Below the pieces are notes generated by a model, which searched no databases, had not been told where the DNA came from, and saw only the letters and a program-made list of their open reading frames with translations. Source: a virus (Duplodnaviria > Caudoviricetes). Taken from it: a stretch of 64,000 nucleotides of DNA. Position 1 is the stretch's first letter, and the number at the start of each line of letters is the position of its first letter. The translations under genes were made by a program, and so were the position numbers. Of the stretch, positions 29,859 through 57,763 are shown in pieces. Location of the stretch: the IMG/VR virus record IMGVR_UViG_3300009868_000002, positions 39,556 through 103,555 of that record; one strand, written 5' to 3'.

Positions 29859-30878
29859 TTACAAAATTAACCGAATAGTACTGTCGCTGAATAGAGTAGT
29901 ATCGACGTAGAATGGAACATGAGCTGTACAAGTAATGTAGCGGCTTTCCGAGCCGATTTCCAGGTAGTTACCTAATACGGCGTTATTATTTTTAGTAACT
30001 CTTTGGCATAGCGATATCCAGTGTTGTCCTTGTATTTTCATAGTAGTAGTCTGCAAGTTTGGGCATGGTCAGCAAAAAGCATAAAGACAAATGCAGTACG
30101 CTGTAATGTGCCGGGAGTAAGAAATCTTACCTGTGTAGGGACATAAAGTTTCATAGTATTAGTCTTATAGTGAATTCAGCATTAGGTCTTGTAATCCGGT
30201 AATAGCGAGAAAGAAAGTAAGTCTGGGCAGTAGGAATAACCATCTCTTTGTAGCAGCAAATAACAGCTGGACCAACGTAATGACGATGTAAATTCATAGT
30301 ATTAGTCTTTGTGATACAGAATCGTTTCTACCACCTGGAGTCATTACAAATCCAGGGAATGAGGTAGCAGGAGCAATTATGTGGACTGTTCTATTATAGA
30401 AGGGTAGCTGTACTTTATAGTAATGCAGCTGTCCGCTTAGTCGCGCTATCTTCATAGTATTAGTCTTTGCGAAATTTCTCTTCCTATTACTGCTGTTTCG
30501 TCTCTATTATATCGAGTTATCCATACTGTAGTAGAAATATCCCAAGATAATTTTCCATGTAGCCTGATATAATCAGTTAGAAATCTAATGGTGCACTCTA
30601 TTTTCATAGTAGTAGTCTTTGTGCTATAGTACCATTTAGCCTGGCCTCACTCATTCTCCATACAATATTATGGGTATGATAATAGTAGCCGTACAGTAGT
30701 ATTGTTGCTTCCCTCATTTGATACCATTGTGTAATTAGTCTCATAGCGTTAGTCTTTGTGAAAGTGATTCCAGACGCCAGGTTCCAATAGGGCACATTAG
30801 CCAACTATAGCCAAATGCATAATCGCCCTGTGCTTCTATAACACCAGAGCCGATGTAGTTTCTTTGGATTATGACCAT
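29859..30878 (-). CDS. RLIL mini-ORF array A: 7 coupled ORFs
   Basis: Hand-translated: 30741-30878 (..SQRLTL), 30604-30744 (..AQRLLL), 30452-30607 (..SQRLIL), 30294-30455 (..SQRLIL), 30151-30297 (..TIRLIL), 30038-30154 (..TCRLLL), 29859-30041 (..TIRLIL); ATGA overlaps. Confidence 0.85.
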
Positions 30879-31900
30879 AGCTCCAGCATTTTAGTGCGAT
30901 TATTAAAATAGCTATCCAAGTCGAAGTCTTCAATGCCCAGCCTGACAGCATCCTTGTAGATATCTAGTGCCTGCCTCCACCCATAGATATACTCCTCTTC
31001 CCTGGTGATGTTAAAGTCCTGCTCATTAATCAGCACTGATTTTACCCTGGTAGCGCCATACTCTCCAACGTATAAGTCGGTAGGACTGCAAGGGTATACA
31101 TACGGTGATACAGCAGGATTGGCACTGCCAACCAGAAACGTGAAAGGAAGTACTTTCCATTCAGGATAGTGGAATTTCAGCAATGCCGTATAGAAGCTTG
31201 CCTGTATGTCAGCACGATTTCTGCGTGCCTGATACTTCCACTCCCTTACGGAAGCGCTGGTGACTTTAAAATCGATAGGCTCGATGGTAAAATCCCTTTC
31301 GTTAAAGAGGCATTTGTCAAGTAGCCCTTTACAGTCCACTTCTGATAGCGTGGCATACAGTGGAAACTGGTACTTGGCGCGAAGGATAAAGTTATCCTCG
31401 GCAAAGTACTTATAGGTATTGGGGCTAGACTTGAAGTTTTCTGCAATGCGGGAACAGATGTCCCACTCCTTTTGCAGCACGATAGTTCTGCCTTCAGCCT
31501 CTTGCAAGAAATCCCAGTAGCTGATAGTTTCCTTGATGACGTTATCGACGCGCTGCTGCATCGTCCAGTGTGCATTACCTTTGTATTGCACTTCTTCGAT
31601 AGCACCTTCAATCAAGTCACGCAGCATATACAAGTTAGCTTCGCTACTGGCTTGCTGATAGACACGATTGATGATTTTATCCATCGTCTCACCAGGGCGC
31701 TTTTCTTCCTGTACGATGAGGAACTTATCTTTCCACCACTCTTGTGGCAATGTCAGGATAGCGTCTACGATGCTTCCTGTTTCCATGTATTTATTCCTCC
31801 CCGGCACACGTTCTGGCTCGGGGTCATCGATGTTGATGATACGCTTCAGCAGTGTCTGGTTGACAGCCGGTGAAGCTTCATATTCCAGTATTTCTTTCAT
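30869..31900 (-). CDS. PD-(D/E)xK exonuclease (RecE/ExoVIII-like)
   Basis: CKGLLDK..IDFKVT, IQASFY; likely start ATG 31900 (MKEILEY), overlapping the stop of a mini-ORF. Confidence 0.8.
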   Translation of the reverse strand: MKEILEYEASPAVNQTLLKRIINIDDPEPERVPGRNKYMETGSIVDAILTLPQEWWKDKFLIVQEEKRPGETMDKIINRVYQQASSEANLYMLRDLIEGAIEEVQYKGNAHWTMQQRVDNVIKETISYWDFLQEAEGRTIVLQKEWDICSRIAENFKSSPNTYKYFAEDNFILRAKYQFPLYATLSEVDCKGLLDKCLFNERDFTIEPIDFKVTSASVREWKYQARRNRADIQASFYTALLKFHYPEWKVLPFTFLVGSANPAVSPYVYPCSPTDLYVGEYGATRVKSVLINEQDFNITREEEYIYGWRQALDIYKDAVRLGIEDFDLDSYFNNRTKMLELWS

Positions 31901-32928
31901 AGGTATAGCCGTATAGATACATGCCAATCAGGTCGTGTTATATAAATATCGTTATCGAGAACAACTCGATATCTATAAGTTTCTAAGCTAGAATTCCAAG
32001 AGCCTCCTAATGGTACTGAAGAATTTCGTATTAACTTCATAGCCAGAGTCTTTGTGATGCAGTATGAAGTGGTTCAATGCGCTCTATATATCCCGTAGTA
32101 GCAGTAACAAAGCAGAAGCAGTCAACGTCATAGAAGTCAAAAGGCTCTGTCCAGTAGGTGCCGCCTAAAACACAATGTTTGATTCTCATAGTATTAGCCT
32201 TTGTGATATACGCCTTGAAAAGTAATTAGGAGAGCCCATTGATATTGAGACGGCATTAAAGTTTTGCATGCCTATCGTATAGTTATAGCCCATTATATGC
32301 CAAGCTTCATACAGTTTCATAGTATTATTCTTATGCCTCTAGCTGAAAATATAGCGCCAACATGTACCAAAGTTTCTACGTCGTAGCCAGATAGTCTAAT
32401 GCTGCTTAAGCAATAGCCTGCTTTCTGGTAGCATCCTTTGCTGTGATAAAATTCCTCTTTTCCTATCTTCATAGTATTAGTCTTACTGTAGTTTCCATAT
32501 CACTATAAAAGTGCATACCATAGTGTATTCTGAATCGGTGTGAGGGAGCATAGTATAAGATGCCTAGCCTGTATATTGATATTCCTATAGGATATTCTGT
32601 CATCAGGTTCATAGCCAGAGTCGTTGCGATACAGTATGAAATCTCACTATACGCTCCACATAACCCATAGTAGCAAGCACAAAGGCATGCTCATCAAAGT
32701 CATAGAAGTCAAATGATTCTGTCCAGTAGGTTCCTCCTAAAGCACAATGTTTGATTATCATAGTATTAGTCTTTGTGTTCTACCGCAAGAAAAGGCATCA
32801 CAGTAGTGCATTTTTTGTACTTCATACATCCGGTTTATTGCATCTTTACTGTTGATATAAAAGTATCCTGCTCTGAAAAAGTACCCCGCCTTTTCAAGTG
32901 TAGCGAAAGCTTGTCTTCCAATTCTCAT
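31897..32928 (-). CDS. RLIL mini-ORF array B: 7 coupled ORFs
   Basis: 32758-32928 (..TQRLIL), 32609-32761 (..SQRLWL), 32469-32612 (..TVRLIL), 32317-32472 (..GIRIIL), 32186-32320 (..SQRLIL), 32037-32189 (..SQRLWL), 31897-32040 (LGGSW..SIRLYL). Confidence 0.85.
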
Positions 32929-33335
32929 AGTATCCTGATTATTACTCCAGCATTTTCTTTATCCACCCTGTACCATTGCCCGTCTATCTCTAGTGGGATA
33001 GGTACCATCTCTGTGATGTTATCGTCAGGTATCCACTTGTGGAATACCATTGCATCCTGTGGGCATTGCGTCATATTGTTAAAGTCGAATAATCTCTTAC
33101 TATCTCGGATAAAGAAAAACCCTATTTTCAAGGGTTTTTCCTTACCCTTAATAGCACGCCTAAACTTGGGGGCTAATGCCTTCATCAGCTCCGCTGTATT
33201 CTTTCTCCATCGCTGTGTAAGCTTGTTTGCAACAAAGTGTCCTCCCGAAGTCAGCACACGGCTGTTCTTCGAAGAGGGCACGTTGCCGGGAATAAAAAAC
33301 TCACATTCTACTGTAGACTTCTTGGGCTGCTTCAT
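32925..33335 (-). CDS. RusA-like Holliday junction resolvase
   Basis: IPGNVPSSKN, RLFDFNNM..PQDAM..IPDDN. Confidence 0.75.
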   Translation of the reverse strand: MKQPKKSTVECEFFIPGNVPSSKNSRVLTSGGHFVANKLTQRWRKNTAELMKALAPKFRRAIKGKEKPLKIGFFFIRDSKRLFDFNNMTQCPQDAMVFHKWIPDDNITEMVPIPLEIDGQWYRVDKENAGVIIRIL

Positions 33336-33738
33336 ATACCGCCTTTTCTATCTCCGCTGAATTGCTGAAATCCTTGACTGTAAAGCTATCGGTAATGTAT
33401 GGAAATACATAATCTACAAAGATAGCGTTAATGTCCAAGTATTTCAGCTTGTTAAACAGCTGGGTAGCAAAAGCGGTATGGCGAAGTGCCTCACTTATCA
33501 AAATTGTATAATCATCCTGCCGTGCTGCAACGATGATGCCATCCATGTAGATGGTACACTGCTCGATGTAGTACCATGCTTTGGTGTAGATATCCTTAGC
33601 CTTGGCTTTCGGCATGGGCTGTGGCAGCAGCAATAAGTCCAGCAACGCCGACATAGGCACTGTCCTCACCTTCTTCAGGGAAGAGAGAGAGCACGGTATC
33701 GACGACAGGTGCTGGTACGGTATCTTCAGCGTATTCAT
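33301..33738 (-). CDS. Hypothetical protein (start uncertain)
   Basis: ORF between E1 and RusA; its 5' part overlaps E1. Confidence 0.45.
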   Translation of the reverse strand: MNTLKIPYQHLSSIPCSLSSLKKVRTVPMSALLDLLLLPQPMPKAKAKDIYTKAWYYIEQCTIYMDGIIVAARQDDYTILISEALRHTAFATQLFNKLKYLDINAIFVDYVFPYITDSFTVKDFSNSAEIEKAVYEAAQEVYSRM

Positions 33739-36246: not shown

Positions 36247-36257
36247 AGGAGTAAGTT

Positions 36258-36288
36258 AAAAGGGGAGAGGTGCAAACCTCTCCCTCTT
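36258..36288 (-). terminator. Rho-independent terminator-like hairpin
   Basis: gggagaggt-gcaa-acctctccc with a U-run on the - strand. Confidence 0.65.
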
Positions 36289-36290
36289 GA

Positions 36291-36818: not shown

Positions 36819-36866
36819 TACTCATAGGTTTAACGTTAAACGAATATTATGCATGCAAAAATTGCC

Positions 36867-40382: not shown

Positions 40383-41451
40383 ACTGTTTTACTTTATCAT
40401 AGACTCTAAGCATATTCTCTGTGTCGTTTGGCAGTGGCAGCTCTTTAATGTATCCAGTTTTTCCGTCAAAAAACAGCCCAATTTCTTTATTTACAGGGCC
40501 ATAGCGCTGCTTAACGATATTTATCGTCCTAAAGTAGGAGCTTAGCATACTTAGCTGATATCCATTTTCATCTGGGTAGACTTTATATCCATAGCGGCTA
40601 GGGTCATTAATGCCAAGGATATTCATATAGCGTCTGCCTACCTTTTTGTTATCACCCAATCCCTGTAATGAAACTCTGGTATAGTTTTCCTTCTTATGCT
40701 CTATGTCTTCCTTAGCGGCCATCTGTTGGTGTATTACTAAGCAGTTGTAGTTAAAGCGCTTGGTAACATAGCTTCGCAGGTAGCGCGTCATATTCTCTAT
40801 TGCTGAATCTAGCGTCACTTCTTTATCATCGGGCATTAATTCTCCTACGTGGTCTACGACAGTAATGATGAATTCTTCAGGATTGTGAGGGACATAAGCA
40901 TTCCAATGCTTTACATCGGTAGCGGGTTTGCCATTCATGAATATGTCGCCACGACTAAAGGCAAATTCACGAATGGTATCGTAGATACCAAAAGACTTAT
41001 ACGTTCTATCGTCGACGTTGATATAAGCCTTATACTGCTCAAACATGTCGTCGACACGGTGCTGCTCCAGAATAGTCAGGTACTCTTCGTCGATAGCTTC
41101 AGTAAAGCTTTCAAATTCCCTGATATTCAGGCGTACTGCTGCCAAGCGATAGGCTAGTGCAGAGTATAGCGTATAGTCGAATTGCTCCTCACTTTCTTCC
41201 AATGCAAAATACAAAATTTTCAGGTCTAAGTTATTCTCGATAGCAAAGTCTATAGCATTAATGACGTATAGTTGTTTTGCTATCGTCGTCTTCCCAACAC
41301 TTGAGTTGGAAGATATGCAGTCTAACATACCTTTGATGATGCCGGGAAAGTAGCTAGTAAGTCGTGGTGCGTTTCTGAAGGGAATACATCGCAGTTTCCC
41401 TGCCAGGAAAAGCTCTCTGTTGTGTTTTATTTTATCCAGCATTCTACTCAT
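40366..41451 (-). CDS. DnaB-like replicative helicase
   Basis: SNSSVGKT, FALEE, VVDHVG, IHQQ, KQRYG; likely start 41451 by ATGA coupling. Confidence 0.85.
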   Translation of the reverse strand: MSRMLDKIKHNRELFLAGKLRCIPFRNAPRLTSYFPGIIKGMLDCISSNSSVGKTTIAKQLYVINAIDFAIENNLDLKILYFALEESEEQFDYTLYSALAYRLAAVRLNIREFESFTEAIDEEYLTILEQHRVDDMFEQYKAYINVDDRTYKSFGIYDTIREFAFSRGDIFMNGKPATDVKHWNAYVPHNPEEFIITVVDHVGELMPDDKEVTLDSAIENMTRYLRSYVTKRFNYNCLVIHQQMAAKEDIEHKKENYTRVSLQGLGDNKKVGRRYMNILGINDPSRYGYKVYPDENGYQLSMLSSYFRTINIVKQRYGPVNKEIGLFFDGKTGYIKELPLPNDTENMLRVYDKVKQYDNTP

Positions 41452-42151
41452 AGGCATAGTCTGTATGATGTACTAAATTCTAACGAACTCGTATATAGTA
41501 TATACTTACACAGTGAAGTAGATTCAAGATACATTTGTGTATAGAAAAAGGTGCTGGATACCCGTCCCTGGAGTAGTAGTTTCATAGTATAAGCCGGTGT
41601 GAACCTCCTTCCATTGAAAGTATGCGGTTTGTATAGCTAATCAGAGGTGCTCTATCGATAGTCCGCGCTGAATGATACCATGACCAGGATAGCTGTGCGA
41701 AGCGATTTAGTTTCATAATATAAGTCGTATTGATGGTGCGTTACCGTGAAGAATTCTCCAGTAATAAGTAGGATGATGTCCTAGGAGATACCATTGGTGT
41801 TCTATTGATAGTTTATTTACATCTTCGCCATAGGTATACCACAAGGCAAGCTCGAAGTAAGGTGGTAGTTTCATAGTATCAGCCTTATTGATTTATTCTT
41901 ATCGTCTAGGGAATACTCTATAGCTATAGCTCCACCTATAAGCTGAAGTGTTAGTATTTCATCCATGCTGTCAAAGTAGCAGTATGATGTCCAGCGGAAT
42001 AATAGTTTCATAGTATTAGCCTCGGCGTAATCGGCGTAATGTTAAATCCAAAGTCGTAGTTCTCGTAGAATAATCCTATGATGTCGTCTTCACATACATC
42101 TGTTTCGCTGTAGTTAAACGCACTAGAAACAAAGGCGCAAAATAGTTTCAT
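41448..42151 (-). CDS. RLIL mini-ORF array C: 5 coupled ORFs
   Basis: 42008-42151 (..TPRLIL), 41871-42011 (..SIRLIL), 41713-41874 (..SIRLIL), 41582-41716 (..SHRLIL), 41448-41585 (..SYRLCL); all start MKL. Confidence 0.85.
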
Positions 42152-42669
42152 ATCATTCCTGATTTATTCTCTTCAAAGGTAGCATACATAGCGGGTGCTA
42201 TGCCCGTTAGAAAGTCTGCAAGTTTCTTAGCGTATGTCGTGTTAGCGTAGTAGCTTACCGTTACCGTTGCCAGCCTCTCGATGTCCAGATTCTTAATCTT
42301 CTGTTGCAGGGCAGCAAAAGCATCTTCATCACCAGAGCCTACAATGCTATAGTCTCTGGGATTATTAGGATGGCCATTATGCCGTATGCCTCTGGTTGCC
42401 AGCAGCTTCATGAAGTCTGCGTAGTTTCCCTGGTTTTCGATGATAAACAGAGGATAGCGTAACGCTATCGTATCTGTTTCGGCGTCATGAAAGCACAGGT
42501 TGATGCGATACTTATATTCATTGTCGGGACTGATGATGCCAGAGTTTATTACCAGCCAGTCCAGTGTGCCGTATTGCTGCATTTCGGCAGCGGCGCAGAA
42601 CAGCAGGGCTTCCTCGACGGGGAGCCCTGACTGCTCTATAGTTTTCAGTAAGGTAGGGTTTACCTTCAT
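42148..42669 (-). CDS. Hypothetical protein
   Basis: 173-aa ORF with ATGA overlaps at both ends. Confidence 0.7.
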   Translation of the reverse strand: MKVNPTLLKTIEQSGLPVEEALLFCAAAEMQQYGTLDWLVINSGIISPDNEYKYRINLCFHDAETDTIALRYPLFIIENQGNYADFMKLLATRGIRHNGHPNNPRDYSIVGSGDEDAFAALQQKIKNLDIERLATVTVSYYANTTYAKKLADFLTGIAPAMYATFEENKSGMI

Positions 42670-42916
42670 AAGATAAGCCTTGTCGAGCTATCCAGAAATA
42701 TTATTGCAATAGATATTTTTGAAAACATGCTATCAAATTCGATGAGGGAAGCATAGCTTTCCCCTACTTCGTATCGTTCGTATAGTCTCATAGGTATAAT
42801 CTTGTAGATGTGTCAACAAATGCACTGTGCCAATAGTTAAGTACATACGAGAAGTATGGTGCAAAGGCGTCAGTATAGTGGTAAAATCCTACTTCTGGGC
42901 GTTGTGATAGTTTCAT
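42666..42916 (-). CDS. RLIL mini-ORF array D: 2 coupled ORFs
   Basis: 42788-42916 (MKLSQRPEVG..STRLYL), 42666-42791 (MRLYERYEVG..STRLIL). Confidence 0.82.
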
Positions 42917-44175
42917 GGCAGGTAGGTACAGAATTCATCGTCCAGTTCTCCTAAGAAATCATGCAAGTAGTCTTCATCCCTGGTGTCGGATAGTACATAG
43001 CAATAAATCTCTGGCTCCTCGCCACGCAGGCTCCTGCCTAGTTTCTGTATCGTCATCAGCTTACTTCCATCCAGCTGCACCATGAAGATTTTCTCCAGGT
43101 TAGCCAGATTCATTCCTTCATTCAGCATAGAGACAGCGTACAGCCTATTCACTTCCCCTTCGTTAAACTGCCGCACCAAGTCGGTGTTGTCCTTCTTGCT
43201 TTTGCTGTGTACGCTAACGTGTGTTCCTGCCATAGCGTCACACTGCTCGATAGAGGAAGCAAATACCAGGCAGCGGGAAGTTTCCTGACGTAGTACCGAT
43301 GCTACATGGGCGGCTTTGCAGTCCCCCATGAAGCGCTTACGCTGGCTGCCTAGCTGGCGCCACCGATTCTTTACCCATTCATTCTGCCTGTACCATTCTG
43401 CAACAAAGAATTTACGTGAAGAGTCATTAGCGATGCCTTCAGATTCTGTAAACATCTTGGCGTTATCAGTGAAGTACTTTGACTTCCACCATTCCATCTC
43501 GTCGGTAAGCAGTTGGTAGTATTGCGCCTGTGTGCAGCTGATGTGGTACTGTACTTTGCGGGCCTGATAGCGCAGGCTGTTCCAGTAGCTGGTAAAGTTG
43601 GTATGCTCCACAGGATTTCCCTTGGCACCCTTGATGTACGTCAAGTCGGTAGTAGTAGTATCCAGCTTCAGTCGCTTGACAAAGATACGGGGCTGTGGCA
43701 GGATACCTTTACGGATAGCTTCGGCGAGCCCTACTCTGAACATCTTCAAGTCAGGAGACAGCTGCTTGAGGAGCAGCATCTTCTCGGTAGGCACGGTAGC
43801 AGAAAGATACAGGCGCCTGTTGGTAGCAATCTGCCTGGCGTATTTGATGCTACGCTGTGTTAGGTGGTGACACTCGTCAAAAATGACGATATCATAGTTG
43901 TTTCCTGCTTCCTTGTCGATACCGGCATAGGTACAGAATACTACATCCGTGCTGAAGCCATGCTTTTCCAAGTCAGCAATCCAGTTCTGCTTATGTACCA
44001 GCTGATGGTGTACGATAAGTGTAACCTTATCCTGCATACATAGCCCTGCAGCGCGTGCTTTTCCTACCCCGGTAGCCCATAGCAACAGCAAGTCGTTGTG
44101 CTGCTGGCTTTGGTTGTAGGCTTCTTCCTGTAGGACAGCCTTGCGGCGATTAGCTTCTTCTTGATTGAATATCAT
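42913..44175 (-). CDS. Superfamily 2 DExH helicase
   Basis: ATGVGKA, DECH, LSAT, EGMN, QKLGRSLR. Confidence 0.88.
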   Translation of the reverse strand: MIFNQEEANRRKAVLQEEAYNQSQQHNDLLLLWATGVGKARAAGLCMQDKVTLIVHHQLVHKQNWIADLEKHGFSTDVVFCTYAGIDKEAGNNYDIVIFDECHHLTQRSIKYARQIATNRRLYLSATVPTEKMLLLKQLSPDLKMFRVGLAEAIRKGILPQPRIFVKRLKLDTTTTDLTYIKGAKGNPVEHTNFTSYWNSLRYQARKVQYHISCTQAQYYQLLTDEMEWWKSKYFTDNAKMFTESEGIANDSSRKFFVAEWYRQNEWVKNRWRQLGSQRKRFMGDCKAAHVASVLRQETSRCLVFASSIEQCDAMAGTHVSVHSKSKKDNTDLVRQFNEGEVNRLYAVSMLNEGMNLANLEKIFMVQLDGSKLMTIQKLGRSLRGEEPEIYCYVLSDTRDEDYLHDFLGELDDEFCTYLP

Positions 44176-45128
44176 AGTAGTAATCTATTAGTACGAAAGA
44201 AAAGTTGAGCATTAGCATCGCAGCTAAACAAGAAAGGGCATCTGTAGTTGTCGTATTCCCATACGTGACTATAGTAGTCTGCGCCACGACTAAGCAAGCG
44301 AATTATCATAGTAGTAATCTGCTTGAGTTATAGAGAAAGCCGTGGTAGTAAATTACTGGTATAAAGAAAGGTATTTCTATGTATGCTGCTCTCTCTAAGT
44401 AATACTCTCCTCCGTATTTATACATAGTGATTTTCATAGTATTAGTCTTATTGAGTCTTCAGGTATCCTCATAGTATCAAACCAGATTATTCCCCATGTC
44501 CATACGCATTGTTTCACTTGATGTATTTCAGTTCCATAGCAGAATCCTACATCATCCATTTTATATAGTATCATAGTATTAGTCTTAGTGAGGCGTTATC
44601 TCTATTGTAAAGTGGCATAGTACTAAAGTCTAGGAAGTCAAGCTCTGAAGTATACCACATAGAAACGATAGTGCGGTAGCTACAATAGCCATTTCGGTTA
44701 GGGCGATATATAGAGAGTATCATAGTAGTATTCTTGTACCCATATATCTACGAGATGTTGTATTAGGTGGCCAGCCATAAAGTATGTTTCGATAGCCAAA
44801 ATGAAATATGCTTTCAATGCTATGTCCGCAAACATCTGTAAGTATCCTCATAGTACTATTCTTGTAGTCCAAAACTTGCTTTCTTTGTCTATGCTCCAAT
44901 TATGATGCCTTGCCATAGGTGCCATCTGGGGGCCGTTTTCAATGATAAATATGCGAGTATTCTCGATACACTGGCCAAGGCGTGTGATTTTATATAGTAT
45001 CATAGCATTAGTCTTTGTCCGATGAATCTCTTGTGTATTATGTTTGGGTTCCAGTCGTATAGACTATAGCGGTGGAAATATACTATACTACCAAAGCAGT
45101 GTCCAAAAGCATCTATCGATAAGTTCAT
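44172..45128 (-). CDS. RLIL mini-ORF array E: 7 coupled ORFs
   Basis: 45000-45128 (..GQRLML), 44848-45003 (..TTRIVL), 44720-44851 (..GTRILL), 44571-44723 (..SLRLIL), 44434-44574 (..SIRLIL), 44306-44437 (..SSRLLL), 44172-44309 (..TNRLLL). Confidence 0.85.
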
Positions 45129-45132: not shown

Positions 45133-47040
45133 TTACTTTTCCCAGCAGTCGGCTATCTTGCAATCTACGACTACTGGTATTGATTTAATGATAATTTCTC
45201 CCGACTCTATCATGATTTGCTGCAGTTTCTCTTTCCATTGTCCTGCAAGCTCTTCTTTACATTCCGAGGCGACTTCGTCATGGATAGGTAAGATTGGTTT
45301 GATGTTGTACTGCAAGCTATTCTCTATTAAGTAGTAGTAGATTTTACCTAGTATACATTTCATCCAGTCTGCGTTGGTGCCTTGCGGTACATGATTGCGC
45401 CCACTACGTTCTGCTTCTCCTCTCTCTGAGAAGTCTGTCCATGGCAGCCATCTTACTCTTCGATATGGAGGTAAAGTAATTGCCTTCTTTGCGTTGACAG
45501 CATAATTACTTATCCTGTCCAGAAAGTTTCTTAATGTAGGTACACTGCTAAGAAAGTTTTCTATGATTTCAGCAGCCTGCTGCTGGCTAATCTCCAGTTT
45601 GCTTGCCAGCTTCTTTGGACCCATGCCGTAGGAAATTCCAAAATTCAGTGTTTTTTGGACTCCTCTATAGCTTTCACCACCATAGGGAGACTTCTTCTTT
45701 ACGTCTTCTATTGGAATGTTGAAGGTACGGGCACACAACTCCCCGTGTAAGTCTTTACCTTCTCTGAAGGCAGACAGCCATACTTCATCCTGGCTAGCCT
45801 CCGCTAGTATCCTTAATTCTGCTCCAGAGATATCACCACCTACTATTTTCCAGCCTTCTTCAGGGATAAAGCAAGACCGTATTTGCTTGCCTATCTCTGT
45901 GCGGCTTGGTATCTGTAAGAGGTTAGGCTTAGTAAAATCCTTTTTCTTCTTTCCTGTCTCGTCTTTCTTTGATTTACTTCCGGCACTAATCCTTCCCGAC
46001 TTGAGGTTTTGCCAGAAGCTGGTGTGTATCCTTCCTGTTATAGGATTGATTGCTTTAGGTAACGGTAAAGCGAAGCCAGAGTACAACTTCAGTGTTTTTA
46101 TATACTCCTGCATCAAGGGTATAATAGGATGTTCCTTCTTAAACCTGTTGAGAGACTGCTCTGAAGTATCTTGTATTAGTGGATTAATTCGCTGTAACAG
46201 CTGTAGTTTCTGCTGTGGGCTAGCCCAATTTATTCCTGTATTCATAGGAGCAAACATGTTAGTCTGGCGTTTTCCAATGCCATCGAAAAGAGGATACTGC
46301 ACTATAACTTCATCAAGCCTATGTTCTAGCTTGATAAGCTCTTCTGCTAAGGCTGCTGTAATAGTACTCCACTTCTCGGTGTGCAGCTTAACGCCATTGT
46401 ACTCCATAAGTCCCAAGCATAGACATGCCCTGTTTTCTATGCCTAGCACGGTGAGCTCATCCTGTGTATCATCACTAGCCATACCCATCTGCTGTAAGGC
46501 ATCTACCTGGTGATACATGATACTGGGTAGACATTCTACATCCTGGGCGGCGTACTTAATCACCCTCTCTGTAAGCCCTTCCCTATGGATGACGCCACGA
46601 ATAGTTTTATCCAATTCCATATTGGCGTACTTCTTCGCCATCGTTGCCAGCGTATAGCTGCCTTCAGGCATATCTTTACCGGCATGGATGAGGCATTCTG
46701 CTACCATGACGTCGTAGATATTACGCAGATAGTATCCTTCCTGAAAGAAGAATTTCATGTCGAACTTGGCGTTCTGCAGTATTTTAGTAGTAGCAGGACT
46801 GGACATTTCAGTGAGGATGCTATCCTTTTCAGCTCTGTCAAGGCTAAACCAGTCTATGACGTACTGTACGTTATTATCGCCTATTTGCAGAGACAGGATT
46901 TGATTCTTTCCATTCCATTCTCCTGTAGTTTCTGTATCTACGCCATAGCAGTCGGTGATTTGCATATAGTATAGAACATCCTGTACTGAAGCAGTTTCAA
47001 AGGGTAGGGAATGCTGCTTGTTGCTGACGAACCTTATCAT
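45133..47040 (-). CDS. polA: Family A DNA polymerase with 3'-5' exonuclease
   Basis: VDTET, NAKFD, YAAQD exonuclease motifs; DISGAELR, KTLNFGISYG, IHDE polymerase motifs. Confidence 0.93.
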   Translation of the reverse strand: MIRFVSNKQHSLPFETASVQDVLYYMQITDCYGVDTETTGEWNGKNQILSLQIGDNNVQYVIDWFSLDRAEKDSILTEMSSPATTKILQNAKFDMKFFFQEGYYLRNIYDVMVAECLIHAGKDMPEGSYTLATMAKKYANMELDKTIRGVIHREGLTERVIKYAAQDVECLPSIMYHQVDALQQMGMASDDTQDELTVLGIENRACLCLGLMEYNGVKLHTEKWSTITAALAEELIKLEHRLDEVIVQYPLFDGIGKRQTNMFAPMNTGINWASPQQKLQLLQRINPLIQDTSEQSLNRFKKEHPIIPLMQEYIKTLKLYSGFALPLPKAINPITGRIHTSFWQNLKSGRISAGSKSKKDETGKKKKDFTKPNLLQIPSRTEIGKQIRSCFIPEEGWKIVGGDISGAELRILAEASQDEVWLSAFREGKDLHGELCARTFNIPIEDVKKKSPYGGESYRGVQKTLNFGISYGMGPKKLASKLEISQQQAAEIIENFLSSVPTLRNFLDRISNYAVNAKKAITLPPYRRVRWLPWTDFSERGEAERSGRNHVPQGTNADWMKCILGKIYYYLIENSLQYNIKPILPIHDEVASECKEELAGQWKEKLQQIMIESGEIIIKSIPVVVDCKIADCWEK

Positions 47041-48055
47041 AATATTAGCCTTGACGATGTATCTGGAAATTCAAATTCTGCTGAGTTATTCCATTGCTGT
47101 ATTATGTACGATACTTTGCTATCGGGAGTTGCTGAAAAGTCTAAATTGAGTAAGTGACAGTTTCTTCCTATTGCATTAATGAAGTATAGTTTCATAGTAA
47201 TAGCCTTGAGGATTCGATAGATATATCAGTTTCAGATTGCCAATCAAGCGAAACAAAGTATCCATATAGCCTGTACGAGCAGTATTTGTTATGTGCTATA
47301 CCATATAGCAGTTTCATAGTATAAGTCTTGTTGAGGTGTCCTCGCATCTAAAACTAGTAGTAAGCTCATACCAAGTATCTACACAAAACGTAGGATATCG
47401 CTCATAGAAGCAGCTTCCTAAAGCGCATATGATGAATAGTTTCATAGTATTAGCCTTATACTTCTTGAGCGAAAGATTGATTGTGTTGATGGATATACGA
47501 CAACCCTGACACACATTTGCGTGGAGTCATGTACATAGTTATATCCATGTCTGATGCAGGTGTAGATTCTCATAGTATAAGTCTTATAGTTTCGCTGTGG
47601 TCATCTATTGTCATAGGAAATACGCCAAAGTATCCATGCAGCTTATATTTATAGAGAGTACAGCTGTGTTCGACGGCAAGTATAAGTTTCATAGTATAAG
47701 TCTTGAGCATCTAGGAAAGAGAGAGAATGAAAGTGGTGCTGAAATAGCCATCAGGGGATTGTACCAAGGTTTGCTGCCTGCACCCAGCCCTATAAATGTA
47801 CCAGATAGTTTCATAGTATAAGTCTTGAGGATTCGGCAGATACATCAGCTTCAGATTGCCAATCGAGTGCAACGAAGTATCCATAAAGTCTGTGCCTGGT
47901 ATTCCAGGTATGTGCTACACCGTATATTAGTTTCATAGTATTAGTCTTGCTGATTTACCTTTAGCTTGAACTGCGCAAGATAGGGTTAGCTGTCGAAGCT
48001 GTGCTAGATAGCCACATCCATATAACCTCCAAAACATAGTTGTGTAGATTTTCAT
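47037..48055 (-). CDS. RLIL mini-ORF array F: 8 coupled ORFs
   Basis: 47933-48055, 47811-47936, 47689-47814, 47570-47692, 47442-47573, 47314-47445, 47192-47317, 47037-47195; seven end RLIL and one RLLL; the last stop overlaps the polA ATG. Confidence 0.88.
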
Positions 48056-48251
48056 AGTAGCAAATTTAAAGTAGGCAGCGAACCCCTCGCGCTCGCTGCC
48101 CTTCCCCATCAATCAGACAAACAAACGGATAGAAATAGCTAGTACCGGCGGGGAGATGCCTAGCCCTCCAATAATTCCTGACCTGTCAAGTACCCTACTT
48201 AGAAAGTGGTAGTAGTATGCAGTATTATGTCGAAGTCTCATTGCTTTAGGT

Positions 48252-49415: not shown

Positions 49416-49423
49416 TTGTCGGA

Positions 49424-50074: not shown

Positions 50075-50125
50075 AAGAAAACAAATTTAAGAAGTTAAAA
50101 AATGTAAAACAATAAAACAAGGCAC

Positions 50126-50479: not shown

Positions 50480-50509
50480 GGTCATTTAGGTTTGGTTGTT
50501 AATAAATAG

Positions 50510-50839: not shown

Positions 50840-50855
50840 TGCGATTGATTTGAGT

Positions 50856-51182: not shown

Positions 51183-51188
51183 ATTAGA

Positions 51189-52451
51189 TTATTTTATTAA
51201 ACATTCTACTTCCGATACGTTAAAGACAGGACACAGATGCTGTACCGATGCACGCTCCGAGAAGCTGTCATCGATAAATATCGCCCTGCCTGTAACAAAG
51301 TCTGCTTTACTCTTATCAGGCGGTACGGCGATGCCTCTGTTGAAGATACCACCTAGCCTATACTGCTGTAGTTTTTCTATCGGCGCGCCATTGCGCGTTA
51401 ACAATACCAGCTCCTTGCCTTCGTTGATACATTGATACAGGAAGGAAACCAACTGGGTATTCACTCTATCGCGTACGATGAGGGTATCGTCCAGGTCTAC
51501 ATATACTATATCGTATTCGACGTCGGTATGGAATCGGCTGGCAATATACCTATCCATACGGATGTTGAAGGTGTTGGGCTTGATTTCTACGTCCATACCT
51601 AGCCTGGTATAGACGGATAGCAGTCCGAAGTTTACTCCCAGGTTGCGGTGCAGCGCCATGCTGCCAGCGATACGTGGTGCTATCTCCATAAGGGTGAGCA
51701 CCCCTTTCTTGCTGCGCTTAAGCTGGAAAAACCATGCTCCCCACAGTTCCAGAGTAGCATTAATCTTTTCAGCGTACTCCCAGAATACAGGATTATCTAC
51801 AGTAAAGGTGTCGCTGGAGATGCCATTGAGGATGCGATTGCGGCGTCTGCCTTTGGCAAAGCGCAACTCCCCTGCTGCATCGGTAAAGCAGTCGATAGTA
51901 TATTCTTCCCCGGGTAGATATTCCAGTACCAGATAGTCCCAGTCAGCGCCATCAGAAGTACGATACGTTAAGTCTTCTTCGTTGTGTGCAATGAAGGTTC
52001 CCTTACTTCCCTGTCCTTTGTCAGGCTTGAGAAATACAGGAAACTCCTGCACGCTGAAGTCGTATACCTGTGGTACTGGAATGATGTCTTGCATCTTCTC
52101 GTAGGTAAGCCGCTTGCTACGGCATATTGTTGCCGTTTCTGCTGCAGAGCCTATTACCTTGGCGTAGATATCAGCGTGGTTATTTGCCAGCACGTCACAC
52201 ACGTCATCGTGTGCAGGAAATATCATGTCGATATGATATTTCTGAATGTAATCATTAAGCCTTTCGATAAAGTCAGGAGATTTCACGTAGGGTAGCTCCT
52301 CGGTGTAGTTTTCAAAGACATACTTACCGGGATTGCTAGGCTCCGTAGAGTCACCGAAGAGGGTAATATCCTTGGCATATTTCAGGCTGCGGTGTATCTC
52401 CAGGGCTATCTCCGAGCCACAGGGAAACACTAGAATGTTCTGGTTTTTCAT
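51189..52451 (-). CDS. ATP-grasp enzyme fused to a C-terminal HAD-like domain
   Basis: FLKPDKGQGSKG, EYLPGEEYTID, EIAPRIAG; HAD motifs DLDDTL, LLTR, FIDDS. Confidence 0.8.
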   Translation of the reverse strand: MKNQNILVFPCGSEIALEIHRSLKYAKDITLFGDSTEPSNPGKYVFENYTEELPYVKSPDFIERLNDYIQKYHIDMIFPAHDDVCDVLANNHADIYAKVIGSAAETATICRSKRLTYEKMQDIIPVPQVYDFSVQEFPVFLKPDKGQGSKGTFIAHNEEDLTYRTSDGADWDYLVLEYLPGEEYTIDCFTDAAGELRFAKGRRRNRILNGISSDTFTVDNPVFWEYAEKINATLELWGAWFFQLKRSKKGVLTLMEIAPRIAGSMALHRNLGVNFGLLSVYTRLGMDVEIKPNTFNIRMDRYIASRFHTDVEYDIVYVDLDDTLIVRDRVNTQLVSFLYQCINEGKELVLLTRNGAPIEKLQQYRLGGIFNRGIAVPPDKSKADFVTGRAIFIDDSFSERASVQHLCPVFNVSEVECLIK

Positions 52452-53008: not shown

Positions 53009-53631
53009 ACTGTGAATGGTTTAAAGGCTGGCTGGATGCTCAAATCTAAGTACTTCAGCGTAATATCAAGGTTATCGTCAGGCAGTGCTGCCAGTAGTTT
53101 TAATCCACTGGCTGCTACCTCTGGGATAAGGTACATCCTATAGCCTACTTCGGTGAGTGTATCAATAAGGTAATCTATCTCGTTACGTCCACTGAATCGC
53201 ATTTTTCTTGCCCACTGATACAATTCCTCGCTATCGGTAAGAATTGCTCCTCCTGTGGCAAGCTTGAGGTGCTTACGGGCGTTAAATGACACACATTGAA
53301 TACGTCCTGGTACGTACATCCCCTTACGGAATGTCAGGGCGCTATCCCAAACTCTGGTACCTCCCAGATTGTACTCCCCTGTTAGATACTCCGATGAAGG
53401 AAGGAAGTGCACACGTAAAGAGTTGTGTATAATCTCACACGGTACACTGGGATAGGTATGAGAGGGAATAGATACAACGTATCCAATCGGTATTTCTTCC
53501 TGCTTTACGCACCACTTTAGTGCTAGGAAGATGGCGTTGCTGCAGCACTGTAAAGTCACTACATAGGGTGCCCCTGTGTATCTGGAAAGCTGCAGCTCAA
53601 ATTCGTTGTTAATATCGTATACGTTTCTCAT
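53005..53631 (-). CDS. DegT/DnrJ/EryC1/StrS-family PLP aminotransferase (short form)
   Basis: FE..L..Y.G, WDSA, SFNARKHL..GGAILT. Confidence 0.8.
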   Translation of the reverse strand: MRNVYDINNEFELQLSRYTGAPYVVTLQCCSNAIFLALKWCVKQEEIPIGYVVSIPSHTYPSVPCEIIHNSLRVHFLPSSEYLTGEYNLGGTRVWDSALTFRKGMYVPGRIQCVSFNARKHLKLATGGAILTDSEELYQWARKMRFSGRNEIDYLIDTLTEVGYRMYLIPEVAASGLKLLAALPDDNLDITLKYLDLSIQPAFKPFTV

Positions 53632-54202
53632 TAGTAGAGTAGTCTTGTAGATAAAGAAGAAAACCTGGAGGTTTTCGTAAGTCTATAATATAGAATTCCT
53701 TCTTTCGATCTTGTTAAAAAATCATGCGAGGAGTTACGATAGCACCATATTCCAAAACATGAAGGTCCTTGTAGTTTCATAGTACGAATCTTAGTGAGGT
53801 ATCAAATCCAAACATTTCGGCATGCTGTGGAATATTATACAGCCAAATAAGAGTTTTTGTACTCATCAATCCCCAGCAATCTATATCATCGTTAAAAGAG
53901 AGCCTCATAGTACAAGTCTTATCGATGTGTCGTGTAAGAATGATACTGCATACATCTGCACATTAGTTAGCTGCCAATTAGCTAAGCCCCAGCAGTCTAT
54001 GCTACATGCCTTTTTATAGTAGAAATTTATCTTCATAGCTAAAGTATTTGCCGTATTACAATGTTAAGCGTATAGAGCGATTGTCAGCCCATTGAGATGG
54101 AAGAAGTATTCCTCCTTTGTTGTCTCTAATCCATCGCACATACAGCTCCAGAGCATGCGCAAAAGTCACTTCGCCAAAGTTTGGCAGCAATCGTAGCTTC
54201 AT
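53631..54202 (-). CDS. RLIL mini-ORF array G: 4 ORFs
   Basis: 54056-54202 (..SIRLTL), 53905-54036 (..SIRLVL), 53777-53908 (..SLRFVL), 53631-53780 (..STRLLY). Confidence 0.82.
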
Positions 54203-54996
54203 CCTATTGTAGGTTTGTCATTAACGTCAAAATAGTAGCTATCTCCCTGTAGTATTGCTCTTCCATGTTCAGCGTATCTGCCTAAGTATTTCCCCGCCAT
54301 CTTTGCCTTCTCTTCTTGATACAGTGTACCACCAGTATCGATGTGGTCGATATTGATAGTAGGCAAAAAGGCATTGCGGAATCCTGCAGCATGGCTGCGC
54401 GTGCAGTACAAACTGTCTTCAAAGCCATAGACGTCAAATTGGTAGAAGCCGCCAATTCTGTCAATAAGCCTTCTGTTATACAGCACACATGTTCCCATGA
54501 TGTGCTTGGCGAATTCGACAAAGTACCAGGGCTCTCCAGCTTTATGTGGTACCATTACCAGCTGACTGCGGAAGTTGGCGTCAGGATGGCTAGGGTTCTC
54601 CCAGCAGTCCTTACGCTTACATCCTAAAATTCCTATCTCCGGCATCTTCTCCATTGCAAACTCCAGCATCTCTATCCAGCCAGGGGTGTTGACGATGACG
54701 TCGTTGTCAATCTTCAGCAGATGCTGCTCAGGCTCCAGTCGTTTAATGCCTTCGTTGAGTCCACCAGCAGTACCCAGGTTTTCTTCCAGCCTTACCAGTG
54801 TAACGTGACTCCACTGTTTTGTCCATTGTTGCAGCAGTTGTGCTGTTTCAGGAAAGCTGGCATTATCAACAATAACCATAGGTTGTCCTGCATCAGCTTC
54901 CCTTTCCAGTCCTTTTAAGGTAGCCTTGGTGTATTTCAGCCTATCGTTTTCTGCTGTATCGTACACACACATACAGAGTAGTACTTTCTTACTCAT
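54199..54996 (-). CDS. Glycosyltransferase family 2
   Basis: IVDNAS, ENLGTAGGLN, KIDND, YGFED. Confidence 0.85.
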   Translation of the reverse strand: MSKKVLLCMCVYDTAENDRLKYTKATLKGLEREADAGQPMVIVDNASFPETAQLLQQWTKQWSHVTLVRLEENLGTAGGLNEGIKRLEPEQHLLKIDNDVIVNTPGWIEMLEFAMEKMPEIGILGCKRKDCWENPSHPDANFRSQLVMVPHKAGEPWYFVEFAKHIMGTCVLYNRRLIDRIGGFYQFDVYGFEDSLYCTRSHAAGFRNAFLPTINIDHIDTGGTLYQEEKAKMAGKYLGRYAEHGRAILQGDSYYFDVNDKPTIG

Positions 54997-55171
54997 GTTT
55001 TTTCAGTTTAGCTGTTTTCTTTTTCAGCTTTCGCTTTACAAAGAAAGCAATAATCTTAAATTCCCAAGAAGGTATAATGTAGCCTAAAGTAATGATCTTT
55101 ACTAGGGCTTCGGCTAAAGCTATCCACGCTGTTAGCCATACTTCCAGAGTATTCCATGTATAAGCTCTCAT
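54989..55171 (-). CDS. Small membrane protein
   Basis: 60 aa, hydrophobic core and basic tail. Confidence 0.5.
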   Translation of the reverse strand: MRAYTWNTLEVWLTAWIALAEALVKIITLGYIIPSWEFKIIAFFVKRKLKKKTAKLKKHE

Positions 55172-55249
55172 AGCTTAGTTTAAGGTGAAGGCACAGCTTA
55201 CACTGTACCTTCAATTAGTAGTAAAGTAATATGATGTAGTTTCATCACC

Positions 55250-55975
55250 TCAGCTTTGTGCCACCATCAGCTTCACGAACTGCTCTCCTGTCAGCGGATA
55301 CGGCGTGCAAGGCTCACTCTTTCCACCAGGGTCATCCTTACGGCTTCTCCTAAAGATGAAGATGTCACCTTGGCGATACATACTCTTGGGATTCGTAATG
55401 GGGCAGAACGTTAGCGACGCCAGTGCATTAAGTGCGCTGTACTTTCCGGGCTGGCAGTGTGGTGACTGTGCTGTAGGACTGCTGACATTGATGTAAAAGA
55501 CATGGCCCGTAGTAGGACACACCACCTTTACAGCGTAGATGTAATCGTTACCTGTATTCCTACGACGGGATGCTTCGGGGAATAACTTACTAGCATGTAC
55601 GCGTACTAGGTGATACACATTTTCTAATGTGCCATCTTCCAATAGTATGCCTTCCCTATTCCATACTTTCTGCTTGGTAATTATCTTGCAGGTATCGACG
55701 ACTTCAGCGTCATCGTACACCAAGTACTGTAGACGTAAGTACTCTAAGATACCCCTACGCTTTTCCAGCGAAGGCTCTTTGAGTACATCGGCCAATGTCA
55801 GTGGCTGGATGTTATCCCATTGCTCGACGAGAAACTCGTCGTTCTTCAGCGGCGGATAGTCTTTTAGCATGTCGTCAAGTCCATCCGTCAAGTACTTCGT
55901 CTTGAGGATACGTACCGACGTGGTATAGTCGATGACGTATCTATCTTTTACGATTTTAAAAGTTCCTGTTGCCAT
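55250..55975 (-). CDS. DUF6745-like protein with C-terminal RQGD motif
   Basis: LEKRR, VKVVCPTTGHVFYINV, YRQGDIF. Confidence 0.55.
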   Translation of the reverse strand: MATGTFKIVKDRYVIDYTTSVRILKTKYLTDGLDDMLKDYPPLKNDEFLVEQWDNIQPLTLADVLKEPSLEKRRGILEYLRLQYLVYDDAEVVDTCKIITKQKVWNREGILLEDGTLENVYHLVRVHASKLFPEASRRRNTGNDYIYAVKVVCPTTGHVFYINVSSPTAQSPHCQPGKYSALNALASLTFCPITNPKSMYRQGDIFIFRRSRKDDPGGKSEPCTPYPLTGEQFVKLMVAQS

Positions 55976-55984
55976 AATTGAGAG

Positions 55985-56125
55985 TTAGTAAATGAGGCGA
56001 AAGTTGAGATCGCTGCCTTGATTTCGTGTTGGATAGATGAAGTGGTATGCAGAGCAGCAGCCCGGTATAATACTACCCCAGCCACCGCCGTAGAGTATTC
56101 GGTTGTCGTTCCAGTGTAGTTTCAT
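55985..56125 (-). CDS. 46-aa diverged FGE C-terminal (VR-like) peptide
   Basis: MKLHWNDNRILYGGGWGSIIPGCCSAYHFIYPTRNQGSDLNFRLIY; ungapped 17/46 identity to 56128..56268. Confidence 0.8.
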   Translation of the reverse strand: MKLHWNDNRILYGGGWGSIIPGCCSAYHFIYPTRNQGSDLNFRLIY

Positions 56126-56127
56126 TG

Positions 56128-56268
56128 CTAATAGATTAGCCGGAAACCGACGGTGACGTAGCGGAACGACGGGTCGAAGTCGTCGAGGTAGGCGGCGCGG
56201 CAGTCCCAGGCGCCAGTGAGCCAGCTGCCGCCGCGCAGCATACGATAATCCTTAATATGTAGTCTCAT
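56128..56268 (-). CDS. 46-aa separately encoded C-terminal segment of the FGE-sulfatase/CLec domain; DGR variable-region-like
   Basis: MRLHIKDYRMLRGGSWLTGAWDCRAAYLDDFDPSFRYVTVGFRLIY; ATGA overlap with the FGE gene stop; 71% GC core. Confidence 0.88.
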   Translation of the reverse strand: MRLHIKDYRMLRGGSWLTGAWDCRAAYLDDFDPSFRYVTVGFRLIY

Positions 56269-57140
56269 TCCTGCGGGAGTACGTTGAAGATGTTTTCAGC
56301 GCTAAAGTCCAGGTACTTAATCTTCGGCCAGTTGGCTTTCCAGATTTCTTCTGTCATTACGGGCGGGAATTCGGGGAGACACATCTCCCATACGTTGCCA
56401 TACAAGTCGTATACGTCGTAGCTGTTGGGCTTGAGCTCACCAACGGGATGTGTCCTTCCATTGGAATTCTCCGAAAACCACGCTACCTCTTTCAGGTTGT
56501 TGCTACCAGGATACTTATACGTTTCGTTTGGACGATTTACTACTGCCAGCCACTGGTCACTGATGGGGATACGCTGATGGCATTTGTATTGCACCAAGTC
56601 GATTTTCTCCTGTACTGACAGCTTGCGATTAAGAGCAACTTCTTGCTCCTTCACCAACTGTCCGCCAGTCTTCTCGCTGTTGGTGCCAGGGTAGTACCAC
56701 AACCAGATGTCCCCAGAGATACGGGCAAGGATGTAGGTACGTCCTAATCCCCGGTACTCGTTAATCCAGTTGCAGTATTCGATGGCGTCGAGGATACTGA
56801 TATTCACTGCAGGACGAGTACCACGCCCCCAATTCTGGTCAGCGGGAAAGCGGCGATTGGTATGCCAGCAATAGGCATCGTACATCTCAAATGTAAGGGT
56901 ATGCTTACCAATGAAGAGGTCGCCTAAATCGGTAACTTTGGTTTTCCATGTTACTTCATCAGTCTGTTTCTCTTCCAAGAATTTTTGGCGCCGTGACTTT
57001 GACATGGAATTAAAGTCAGCAAGACGCTGTTTATACTCCACGCAGGCTACAAGCCCAGGAGTTGCAAGAGACTTTACTTCACCGAGTTGGGTAAAGTCAT
57101 AATCCTTGCCTTGCTTAATGGTGAAAATAGCGTTTGTCAT
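56265..57140 (-). CDS. FGE-sulfatase (SUMF1/CLec-fold) protein lacking its RGGSW...GFR C-terminal segment
   Basis: RPAVNISILDAIEYCNW, RIP, YPGSN.L.EVAWF, THPVGELKPN.Y.VYDLYGNVWEMC, then ends with no RGGSW/GFR. Confidence 0.88.
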   Translation of the reverse strand: MTNAIFTIKQGKDYDFTQLGEVKSLATPGLVACVEYKQRLADFNSMSKSRRQKFLEEKQTDEVTWKTKVTDLGDLFIGKHTLTFEMYDAYCWHTNRRFPADQNWGRGTRPAVNISILDAIEYCNWINEYRGLGRTYILARISGDIWLWYYPGTNSEKTGGQLVKEQEVALNRKLSVQEKIDLVQYKCHQRIPISDQWLAVVNRPNETYKYPGSNNLKEVAWFSENSNGRTHPVGELKPNSYDVYDLYGNVWEMCLPEFPPVMTEEIWKANWPKIKYLDFSAENIFNVLPQE

Positions 57141-57177
57141 TCGTTATTTTGTTATTATAAGGTAATTTGAATGGTTA

Positions 57178-57203
57178 AGGGAGCGGCTGTTACACCGCTC
57201 CCT
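57178..57203 (-). terminator. Terminator-like hairpin
   Basis: agggagcgg/ccgctccct stem. Confidence 0.55.
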
Positions 57204-57210
57204 GTCCTGG

Positions 57211-57474
57211 TTAGTCGTTGTTGTTTTCCAAGATGCCTGTCAGAGGGTTTACCTCCTTCTGGATAGTGGCATCATAGATGTCCTCTTCCAGTACGAGCGT
57301 ACCGTGGATGGTATGCTCGACAGGAGTAGGACTGGTAACAACAAAGCAGACAACACCCTCTGCATGGTCGGCACGGGGCTGGAAGATAGCCCGACGCACG
57401 ACGTGCTTTTCGGTGCTGGTCTGGGAGAGGCACACAGGGGCCTCATCGACGGTTTCAACATCAGGTTTAATCAT
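57211..57474 (-). CDS. Small His-containing beta protein of the type often found beside DUF6745-like genes
   Basis: VEHTIHGTLVL..DIY..IQKEVNP..D; likely start ATG 57474. Confidence 0.55.
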   Translation of the reverse strand: MIKPDVETVDEAPVCLSQTSTEKHVVRRAIFQPRADHAEGVVCFVVTSPTPVEHTIHGTLVLEEDIYDATIQKEVNPLTGILENNND

Positions 57475-57485
57475 GATTAACGCGT

Positions 57486-57763
57486 TTAAAATGTTATTCT
57501 TATACTCCTTGATTTTCCAAATGTCCAAGTTTGTATTATCAGGTACATGCCAACATCGGAGATGTTAAAGCTGCCTCCATGCTGGTTAATGGGTTTGTTT
57601 CCTGTAAGAGTATATATTTTCATCATCAAAGTATTAGTCTGAATCCTCTGTCACGATTAAGTATAGCGTACAGTATCACTTTGGGGGCCATCCAATGTTC
57701 TTCTGTAAATGCTCCACCCATTCGGTAGAGATGGATATCTTCCGGTAGGCTGTATAGTAACAT
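57486..57763 (-). CDS. RLIL mini-ORF array H: 2 ORFs
   Basis: 57626-57763 (..YRMGGAF..RGFRLIL), 57486-57626 (..HGGSF..SIRITF); TGATG overlap. Confidence 0.8.

Follow-up and report, generated by a model that had tools for sequence, protein, structure and literature searches.

Why should a phage intersperse its replication genes with dozens of open reading frames (ORFs) of only 38–60 residues, and why should a gene at the same locus, for a domain of the formylglycine-generating enzyme (FGE) type, stop before that domain is complete? Both questions are raised by a stretch of 64,000 nucleotides from a crAss-like phage (hereafter the window, to which coordinates refer unless a contig is named) that comprises bases 39556–103555 of a 103.5-kb IMG/VR virus record (IMGVR_UViG_3300009868_000002), with an estimated completeness of 72%. 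We find that the FGE domain is truly split, and the sequence comparisons set out below indicate that the small ORFs, hereafter mini-genes, descend from the C-terminal (variable-region) segment of such a domain. The reading that we favour, as an evenly balanced judgement, is that of a split variable lectin, in which a constant FGE-type scaffold would be completed in trans by a library of mini-gene tips. The natural point of reference is the variable proteins of diversity-generating retroelements (DGRs), the textbook example of a fixed C-type-lectin scaffold that supports massive sequence variation; to our knowledge, their variable region always lies within one polypeptide.

A split FGE-type lectin domain

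The scaffold gene (56265–57140, minus strand) encodes 291 residues: a helical region at the N-terminus and, behind it, a C-type-lectin domain of the FGE type from which the final ~45 residues are missing. It matches PF03781 with 56.2 bits (cut-off 23.3) over profile positions 76–194 of 255, and it is the sole match to this family among the genes of the 103.5-kb genome, apart from the ORF directly behind it. The polypeptide ends in ...NIFNVLPQE, 38 residues past the GNVWEMC motif and ~10 residues short of the point at which RGGSW would be expected; an earlier, sequence-only reading of this locus had placed the stop immediately after GNVWEMC, which is incorrect. Its further claim, that the RGGSW...GFRL segment is absent from the scaffold and constitutes the next coupled ORF, is fully supported: the stop codon overlaps the following ATG (ATGA), and the ORF so coupled, the cognate tip (56128–56268, minus strand; 46 residues, MRL..RGGSW..GFRLIY), corresponds to PF03781 positions 213–254 (E = 2 × 10−4). 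The scaffold does not, therefore, contain a complete PF03781 domain in one polypeptide.

The structural predictions are in keeping with this division. An AlphaFold2 model of the scaffold alone is confident for residues 31–250, and the tail (residues 252–291) has pLDDT values below 50. A Foldseek search with this model gave the DGR target TvpA from Treponema denticola (PDB code: 2y3c) as the best PDB match, with an E-value of 3.7 × 10−5 and a modest TM-score of 0.38–0.40, followed by CarF, PvdO and FGE. The scaffold thus shares its fold family, PF03781, with the FGE-type DGR targets, for which Mtd of the Bordetella phage serves as the general model. The likeness extends to the placement of the variable, ligand-binding residues within the last ~45 residues, from RGGSW to GFRL, and to the NNC-codon, adenine-poor character of the cognate tip; the differences are that the window encodes the variable region as a polypeptide in its own right, with a start codon for each of 45 paralogous copies per scaffold, and that the phage sequences examined yielded no reverse transcriptase (RT), Avd or template repeat.

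The split is conserved. The four closest homologues of the scaffold (P0002–P0005; 47–58% identity) are all ~290 residues long and truncated, and an exhaustive search added five further lineages with a truncated scaffold (P0142, P0155, P0223, P0225 and P0269), which makes nine besides that of the window; these five end soon after a PP-x-MT-x-E-x-W...YLD tail, without RGGSW...GFR. The layout of the scaffold–tip junction varies: the two genes overlap by 4 nt in the window and by 1 nt in contigs L081 and L082, and 127 nt separate them in L083. Contigs L175 and L182 have no tip at this point, the scaffold gene there being followed directly by a conserved gene for 229/241 residues. The presence of the split in at least 10 scaffold lineages, with different junction layouts, argues that it is not an assembly error, and the combination of fold and conserved split implies that the lectin fold could not form at all unless the cognate tip were supplied in trans.

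Moreover, the split scaffold and the mini-genes travel together, as the sequence-only reading would require: all five split-scaffold contigs whose flanks are long enough (the window, L081, L082, L083 and L175/L179) carry mini-genes, and none of 80 ordinary, unsplit FGE loci, which served as the control in a metagenome scan with the scaffold alignment, does so. A literature search (including PMC12386605, PMC5758913 and PMC10907252) brought to light neither a split FGE target nor variable regions encoded as stand-alone genes, in agreement with the sequence-only reading, which had likewise known of no such architecture.

The mini-genes, their ancestry and their likeness to DGR variable regions

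Nine clusters on the minus strand hold 45 ORFs of 38–60 residues that end in R-[LI]-x-[LY], which upholds the family as first described and adds one member (48113–48241) to the 44 then counted. They lie in a block at 29–58 kb that carries genes for a family-A DNA polymerase (26–28% identical to the polymerases of crAss-like phages), helicases, a Toprim primase-like protein, an exonuclease VIII-like protein, an ATP-grasp protein and a GT2 glycosyltransferase; a locus among replication genes, not virion genes, gives no support to the label 'receptor' that the system had been given. Clusters A (29859–30878) and B (31897–32928) contain seven mini-genes each, the latter including 31897–32040, which has the motif LGGSW, and the paralogue pair 32037/32609; clusters C (41448–42151) and D (42666–42916) contain five and two, respectively. 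Cluster E (44172–45128; seven mini-genes) lies between DNA polymerase and helicase genes, cluster F (47037–48241; nine mini-genes, namely eight plus 48113–48241, mostly ATGA-chained) upstream of the DNA polymerase A gene, cluster G (53631–54202; four) downstream of the glycosyltransferase gene, and cluster H (57486–57763; two, with GGAF/GGSF motifs and the ends GFRLIL and SIRITF) upstream of the scaffold gene. The FGE-adjacent cluster consists of the cognate tip and a second FGE-like tip of 46 residues (55985–56125), an older duplicate with a GC content of 0.48 and 37% amino-acid identity to the cognate. The 43 mini-genes other than this adjacent pair are referred to below as distal units.

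Each mini-gene has its own ATG and stop codon and starts with M-[KRIN]-[LI]; arginine occupies position −4 in 43/43 distal units, and Ser, Thr or Gly at −6 and Leu at −3 and −1 are retained among the window units, in the register of the canonical G-F-R-L. A Gly-aromatic motif at residues 6–20, the position of RGGSW, is seen in 24 of the 43 distal units, as against 13.6 ± 2.9 in shuffles, so that both the conserved termini and the N-terminal motif recognized at the outset withstand scrutiny. The composition favours Tyr, Trp, Phe, Cys and His, with Lys reduced to 0.39×. Across the 103.5-kb genome, open frames that end in R-[LIF]-x-[LYVF] number 46 on the minus strand and one on the plus strand, all within the window, and the junction 19-mer AGACTAATACTATGAAACT occurs in 26 copies (with up to three mismatches; chance expectation 0.01), all on the minus strand and in direct orientation. 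The distal units are all open in frame (43/43, versus 10% of shuffled middles), the other two frames being open in 4/43 and 0/43, respectively, and the in-frame codon likelihood, calculated with the phage's own codon table, is the best of the three in 39/43.

The coding sequences are also under selection. Paralogue and orthologue pairs give dN/dS ratios of 0.28–0.76, and for the variable middles the pooled ratio of nonsynonymous to synonymous differences (pN/pS) is 0.65 (p = 3 × 10−4), compared with 0.03–0.05 for neighbouring genes, although it reaches 0.86–0.89 in two of five pairs. The mini-genes are, then, fast evolving under weak purifying selection.

Their ancestry is best read from a relative. 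Against a hidden Markov model (HMM) built from 47 canonical FGE C-termini, with shuffled sequences as the control, the cognate tip scores 58.8 bits, its older duplicate (55985–56125) 21.0 bits and unit 31897–32040 12 bits, and only four window units in all rise above the shuffled controls. The phage represented by L175, whose scaffold (P0142) is 48% identical to that of the window, carries 19 stand-alone mini-genes of 43–58 residues with the pattern MKL..RGGSW..CR.A.R..P..R..GFRLxx, each with its own ATG and mostly with TAA stops, and there are further units along the contig; of the 19, 14 score above 12 bits on the same HMM, with a maximum of 54. Intermediate units are found in L081, L082 and L083. 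HMM score and GC content are correlated over 92 units (Spearman coefficient 0.57) and more tightly within L175 (0.91), and this rise of FGE-likeness with GC leads us to regard its members as FGE C-terminal modules at successive stages of a single birth-and-decay series. Additionally, those units of the relatives that have no ATGA coupling keep R-L-[TI]-L by different codons, which argues for a constraint on the C-terminal motif as protein sequence.

The layout is thus kept across a clade of phages, with copies that range from fresh and DGR-like to old and diverged, but the details are local. Array positions differ between relatives, and each genome has its own version of the junction, which suggests concerted evolution. 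In L174, whose polymerase is 58% identical, ATGA-chained ORFs of 39–49 residues (286–5848) have MKL starts and end in [KI]-x-[SA]-L rather than RLIL, on a contig too short to reveal a scaffold; relatives with polymerases at 49–52% identity showed no array at distances of up to 10 kb from the polymerase gene. Among viral contigs, searches with the scaffold and the DNA polymerase yielded no close relatives, the exact junction 16-mer gave 80 single chance matches and no arrays, and the 3′ 20-mer of the relatives' variable region gave no match. A profile search for stand-alone tips among proteins of 22–83 residues recovered the window's own protein and the L175 phage only.

By their nucleotide sequences, the fresh units resemble DGR variable regions. 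The cognate tips of the window and of L081–L083 have GC contents of 59–62% in loci of 41–42%, with 13–18% adenine and more than half of their codons ending in C (for the window: GC 0.59, A 0.17 and 26/47 codons). Between L081 and L082, the tip has a dN/dS of 1.19 with a dS of 0.29, the dS of the adjoining scaffold being 0.97, and the GC-rich units of L175 have a nucleotide skeleton in common with the tips of distant phages. Cellular DGRs are known to diversify short FGE targets, consisting of the C-type-lectin domain only, beside conflict-system genes (Dore et al. 2024, PMC10907252). A scan for template-like patterns, with one genome per species, found 47 sites, many of them in Bacteroidota metagenome-assembled genomes, and one of these (L229:860–5937; Saprospiraceae, JBAQQB010000142.1) is a complete cellular DGR of this kind, comprising an RT, an AAC-rich template repeat (~1915–2094), a 954-residue Roc-COR-LRR-CHAT protein and a 279-residue FGE target. 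Its template differs from the variable region of its own target at adenines, with one non-adenine change. Both the template repeat and the end of the target closely resemble the phage tips, including the ...GFRL-x-LS terminus, but the bacterial target is unsplit and has its RT and template adjoining. When the phage tips are compared with the best Bacteroidota templates, adenine sites are changed in 50–67% of cases and other sites in 11–19% (67% and 19%, respectively, for the window's cognate tip); differences of 11–19% at non-adenine sites imply that the tips come from a related template and that none of those found is the donor.

It is conceivable, although we consider it improbable, that the DGR of a host (Bacteroidota, perhaps Saprospiraceae), the usual task of which would be to diversify C-type-lectin immune sensors, writes adenine-mutagenised tips into a phage mini-gene, and that the phage archives the successful ones, by duplication, as arrays that serve one scaffold. 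If true, the borrowed host DGR would supply a heritable, germline-like tip library, possibly directed against the DGR-diversified defence sensors of the host itself. The likeness of the fresh tips to cellular DGR templates raises the question of whether these phages exploit or counter hypermutation-based immunity in their hosts.

A proposed mechanism: one body and many tips

How might one scaffold and 45 small proteins act together? Under the reading that we favour, the phage would make one constant C-type-lectin scaffold without the last ~45 residues, the part that in DGR targets is the variable, ligand-binding region. The missing end would be encoded as stand-alone mini-genes, of which a fresh one follows the scaffold gene and 44 paralogues are spread through the replication block. 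Each new copy would start out in a GC-rich, adenine-poor, DGR-type form and would then duplicate and drift towards the AT-rich composition of the phage; the ageing copies would retain the M-[KR]-[LI] start, a Gly-aromatic remnant of RGGSW and the C-terminal strand S-x-R-L-I-L. Via these anchor segments, each peptide would complete the scaffold in trans, so that one body could present many binding tips. Docking of the other 44 peptides in the manner of the cognate would make use of all the facts (descent, anchor strand, own starts, selection and co-occurrence), and the tips would presumably be interchangeable. Combinatorial binding diversity would then come from one body and many genome-encoded tips, assembled after translation.

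The principle has counterparts elsewhere, albeit partial ones. In the R64 shufflon (PilV C-termini), pilS/pilE and vls, a constant part is likewise accompanied by a library of variable segments with conserved flanks; there, however, inversion or gene conversion joins the segments within the DNA, and the cassettes have no start codons, whereas the segments in the window are independent ORFs. LacZ α-complementation and the donor-strand complementation of chaperone–usher pili would share the proposed principle itself, namely, that a missing strand is provided by another chain; we know of no case in which such fragment or strand complementation is combined with a multi-gene library that generates binding diversity. 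If the tips do dock, an assembly of one body with many tips would be one that we have not found described for phages or bacteria.

A number of observations weigh against this proposal. A single scaffold gene would have to serve 45 peptides. When scored with the HMM of canonical FGE C-termini, 41 of the 43 distal units stay at the level of shuffled sequence, such that the FGE-tip identity originally claimed for the peptides stands for their descent, by way of the L175 series, and only thinly for the window taken by itself; Pfam searches with each of the 45 peptides match PF03781 for the cognate tip alone. In leave-one-out comparisons with family HMMs, about two-thirds of the distal units resemble other units at their ends only. 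Most window units have lost the Trp, Cys and Pro residues of the fold's core, which makes canonical domain completion doubtful for the majority. The junctions use the codons AGA CTA ATA CTA with far greater uniformity than conservation of the amino acids would demand, so that part of the likeness among the termini reflects concerted evolution or a constraint on the DNA itself. As to a DGR-type origin, there is no PF00078 match, and hence no DGR-type RT, in the 103.5-kb genome (72% complete) or among the called genes of L081–L083 and L179, no PF05635 (Avd) match in the 103.5-kb genome, and no template repeat in that genome, L081–L083 or L179 (~50 kb of relatives); moreover, none of the mini-genes differs between two assemblies of the L175 phage. 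A complex prediction for scaffold residues 60–291 with the distal peptide 32037–32189 gave a score of 0.24, against a mark of 0.32, and is evidence neither way.

Several of these points would be expected if only the fresh tips (56128–56268 and perhaps 55985–56125) complement the scaffold, the 40-odd AT-rich units being ageing by-products of duplication or retro-copying of the tip, whose frames stay open because, with ATGA chaining, stops would be polar on the replication genes. We regard this as unlikely, but as the most serious of the alternatives. It accommodates the fall of FGE-likeness with GC content, the shuffled-level scores of most window units, the relaxed constraint in two of the five pairs (pN/pS 0.86–0.89), the variable array positions among relatives and the fact that ATGA-chained units precede the polymerase and helicase genes. 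It accounts less well for the pooled pN/pS of 0.65, which we estimate to be an improbable outcome of stop avoidance alone, and for a composition that is not neutral, with Tyr, Trp and Phe raised and Lys depleted. Nor does it explain readily why the arginine at −4 is invariant and R-L-x-L is kept by other codons in uncoupled units, why ~6 kb of relics should be tolerated in an otherwise compact phage genome, or why arrays persist across lineages whose polymerases are only 58% identical.

Rather less probable, in our view, is that the diverged units are small proteins of FGE-tip ancestry whose present action does not involve the scaffold; co-produced with the replication genes, they might, for example, inhibit host proteins. 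The loss of core FGE residues, the location in an early/middle gene block and the drift of the C-terminal motif to [KI]-x-[SA]-L in L174 would all suit such a role, and rapid evolution is a feature of many phage–host conflict genes. However, aromatic-rich peptides of 40–50 residues that derive from inside a larger fold would be unlikely to adopt a structure by themselves, the only trait kept throughout is the strand whose counterpart in FGE proteins pairs back with the rest of the domain, and the truncated scaffold co-occurs in every contig examined.

Variable middles flanked by conserved junction repeats, with a junction version specific to each genome that points to concerted evolution, are also what might be seen if the mini-genes were donor cassettes, recombined by gene conversion via the ~20-nt junction repeats into the site behind the scaffold, in the manner of pilS/pilE and vls. 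This we consider very unlikely: silent cassettes would need neither the ATG and stop codon that each unit possesses nor its coding-type codon use, the junctions at the expression site match the repeat poorly, and all 26 repeats are direct and on one strand. Furthermore, the L175 scaffold has no adjacent tip, and the units of that phage are separated by short A-rich spacers, not repeats.

Finally, an artefact (stop-codon reassignment, an erroneous frameshift or an RNA element of a known kind) can be set aside almost entirely, even though some crAss-like phages do recode stop codons (PMC12386605), since reading TGA as Trp (code 4) yields no long ORFs over the arrays, the window has no tRNA genes, the 29–58.5 kb region has no Rfam matches, consecutive units sit in different reading frames and the split recurs in independent assemblies with different junctions; taken with the open frames and phage-like codon use, the lack of any such signal identifies the mini-genes as real small genes.

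Neighbouring genes

The gene that follows the FGE-adjacent tips (55250–55975, minus strand) encodes 241 residues with a weak likeness to DUF6745; there is no sequence match in Pfam, PHROG or the PDB, and the nearest Atlas clusters are viral hypothetical proteins. A gene of this kind, for 229–241 residues, comes after the scaffold or the tip in all lineages examined, namely, the window, L081 (5765–6466), L082, L083, L175 (2585–3274; 40% identity to that of the window) and L182 (914–1189), and may be a third component of the system. Between it and the GT2 glycosyltransferase gene lies an ORF of 60 residues (54989–55171, minus strand) with a hydrophobic core and a Lys-rich tail, which is not a member of the mini-gene family; in L081 and L082, an array of six to eight mini-genes takes its place.

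The glycosyltransferase gene itself (54199–54996, minus strand) and the ATP-grasp gene (ATPgrasp_Ter/PylC-like; 51189–52451, minus strand) both lie inside the arrayed region, and we found no link between either of them and the peptides. The proximity of the ATP-grasp gene had suggested that the peptides might be precursors of ribosomally synthesized and post-translationally modified peptides, a reading that was dropped as they have no long conserved leader.

The two assemblies of the L175 phage, L175 and L181, derive from an ENA sample and a JGI sample, respectively, and are 100% identical over 12.5 kb, GC-rich mini-genes included. The window phage genome has no MoxR gene or AAA_5 match. In L175, a bpMoxR/AAA_5 ATPase gene and a gene for 404 residues (L175:6054–8518) separate two mini-gene clusters, an arrangement in which the MoxR-type gene recalls the MoxR ternary conflict systems that have been tied to DGR targets (PMC10907252).

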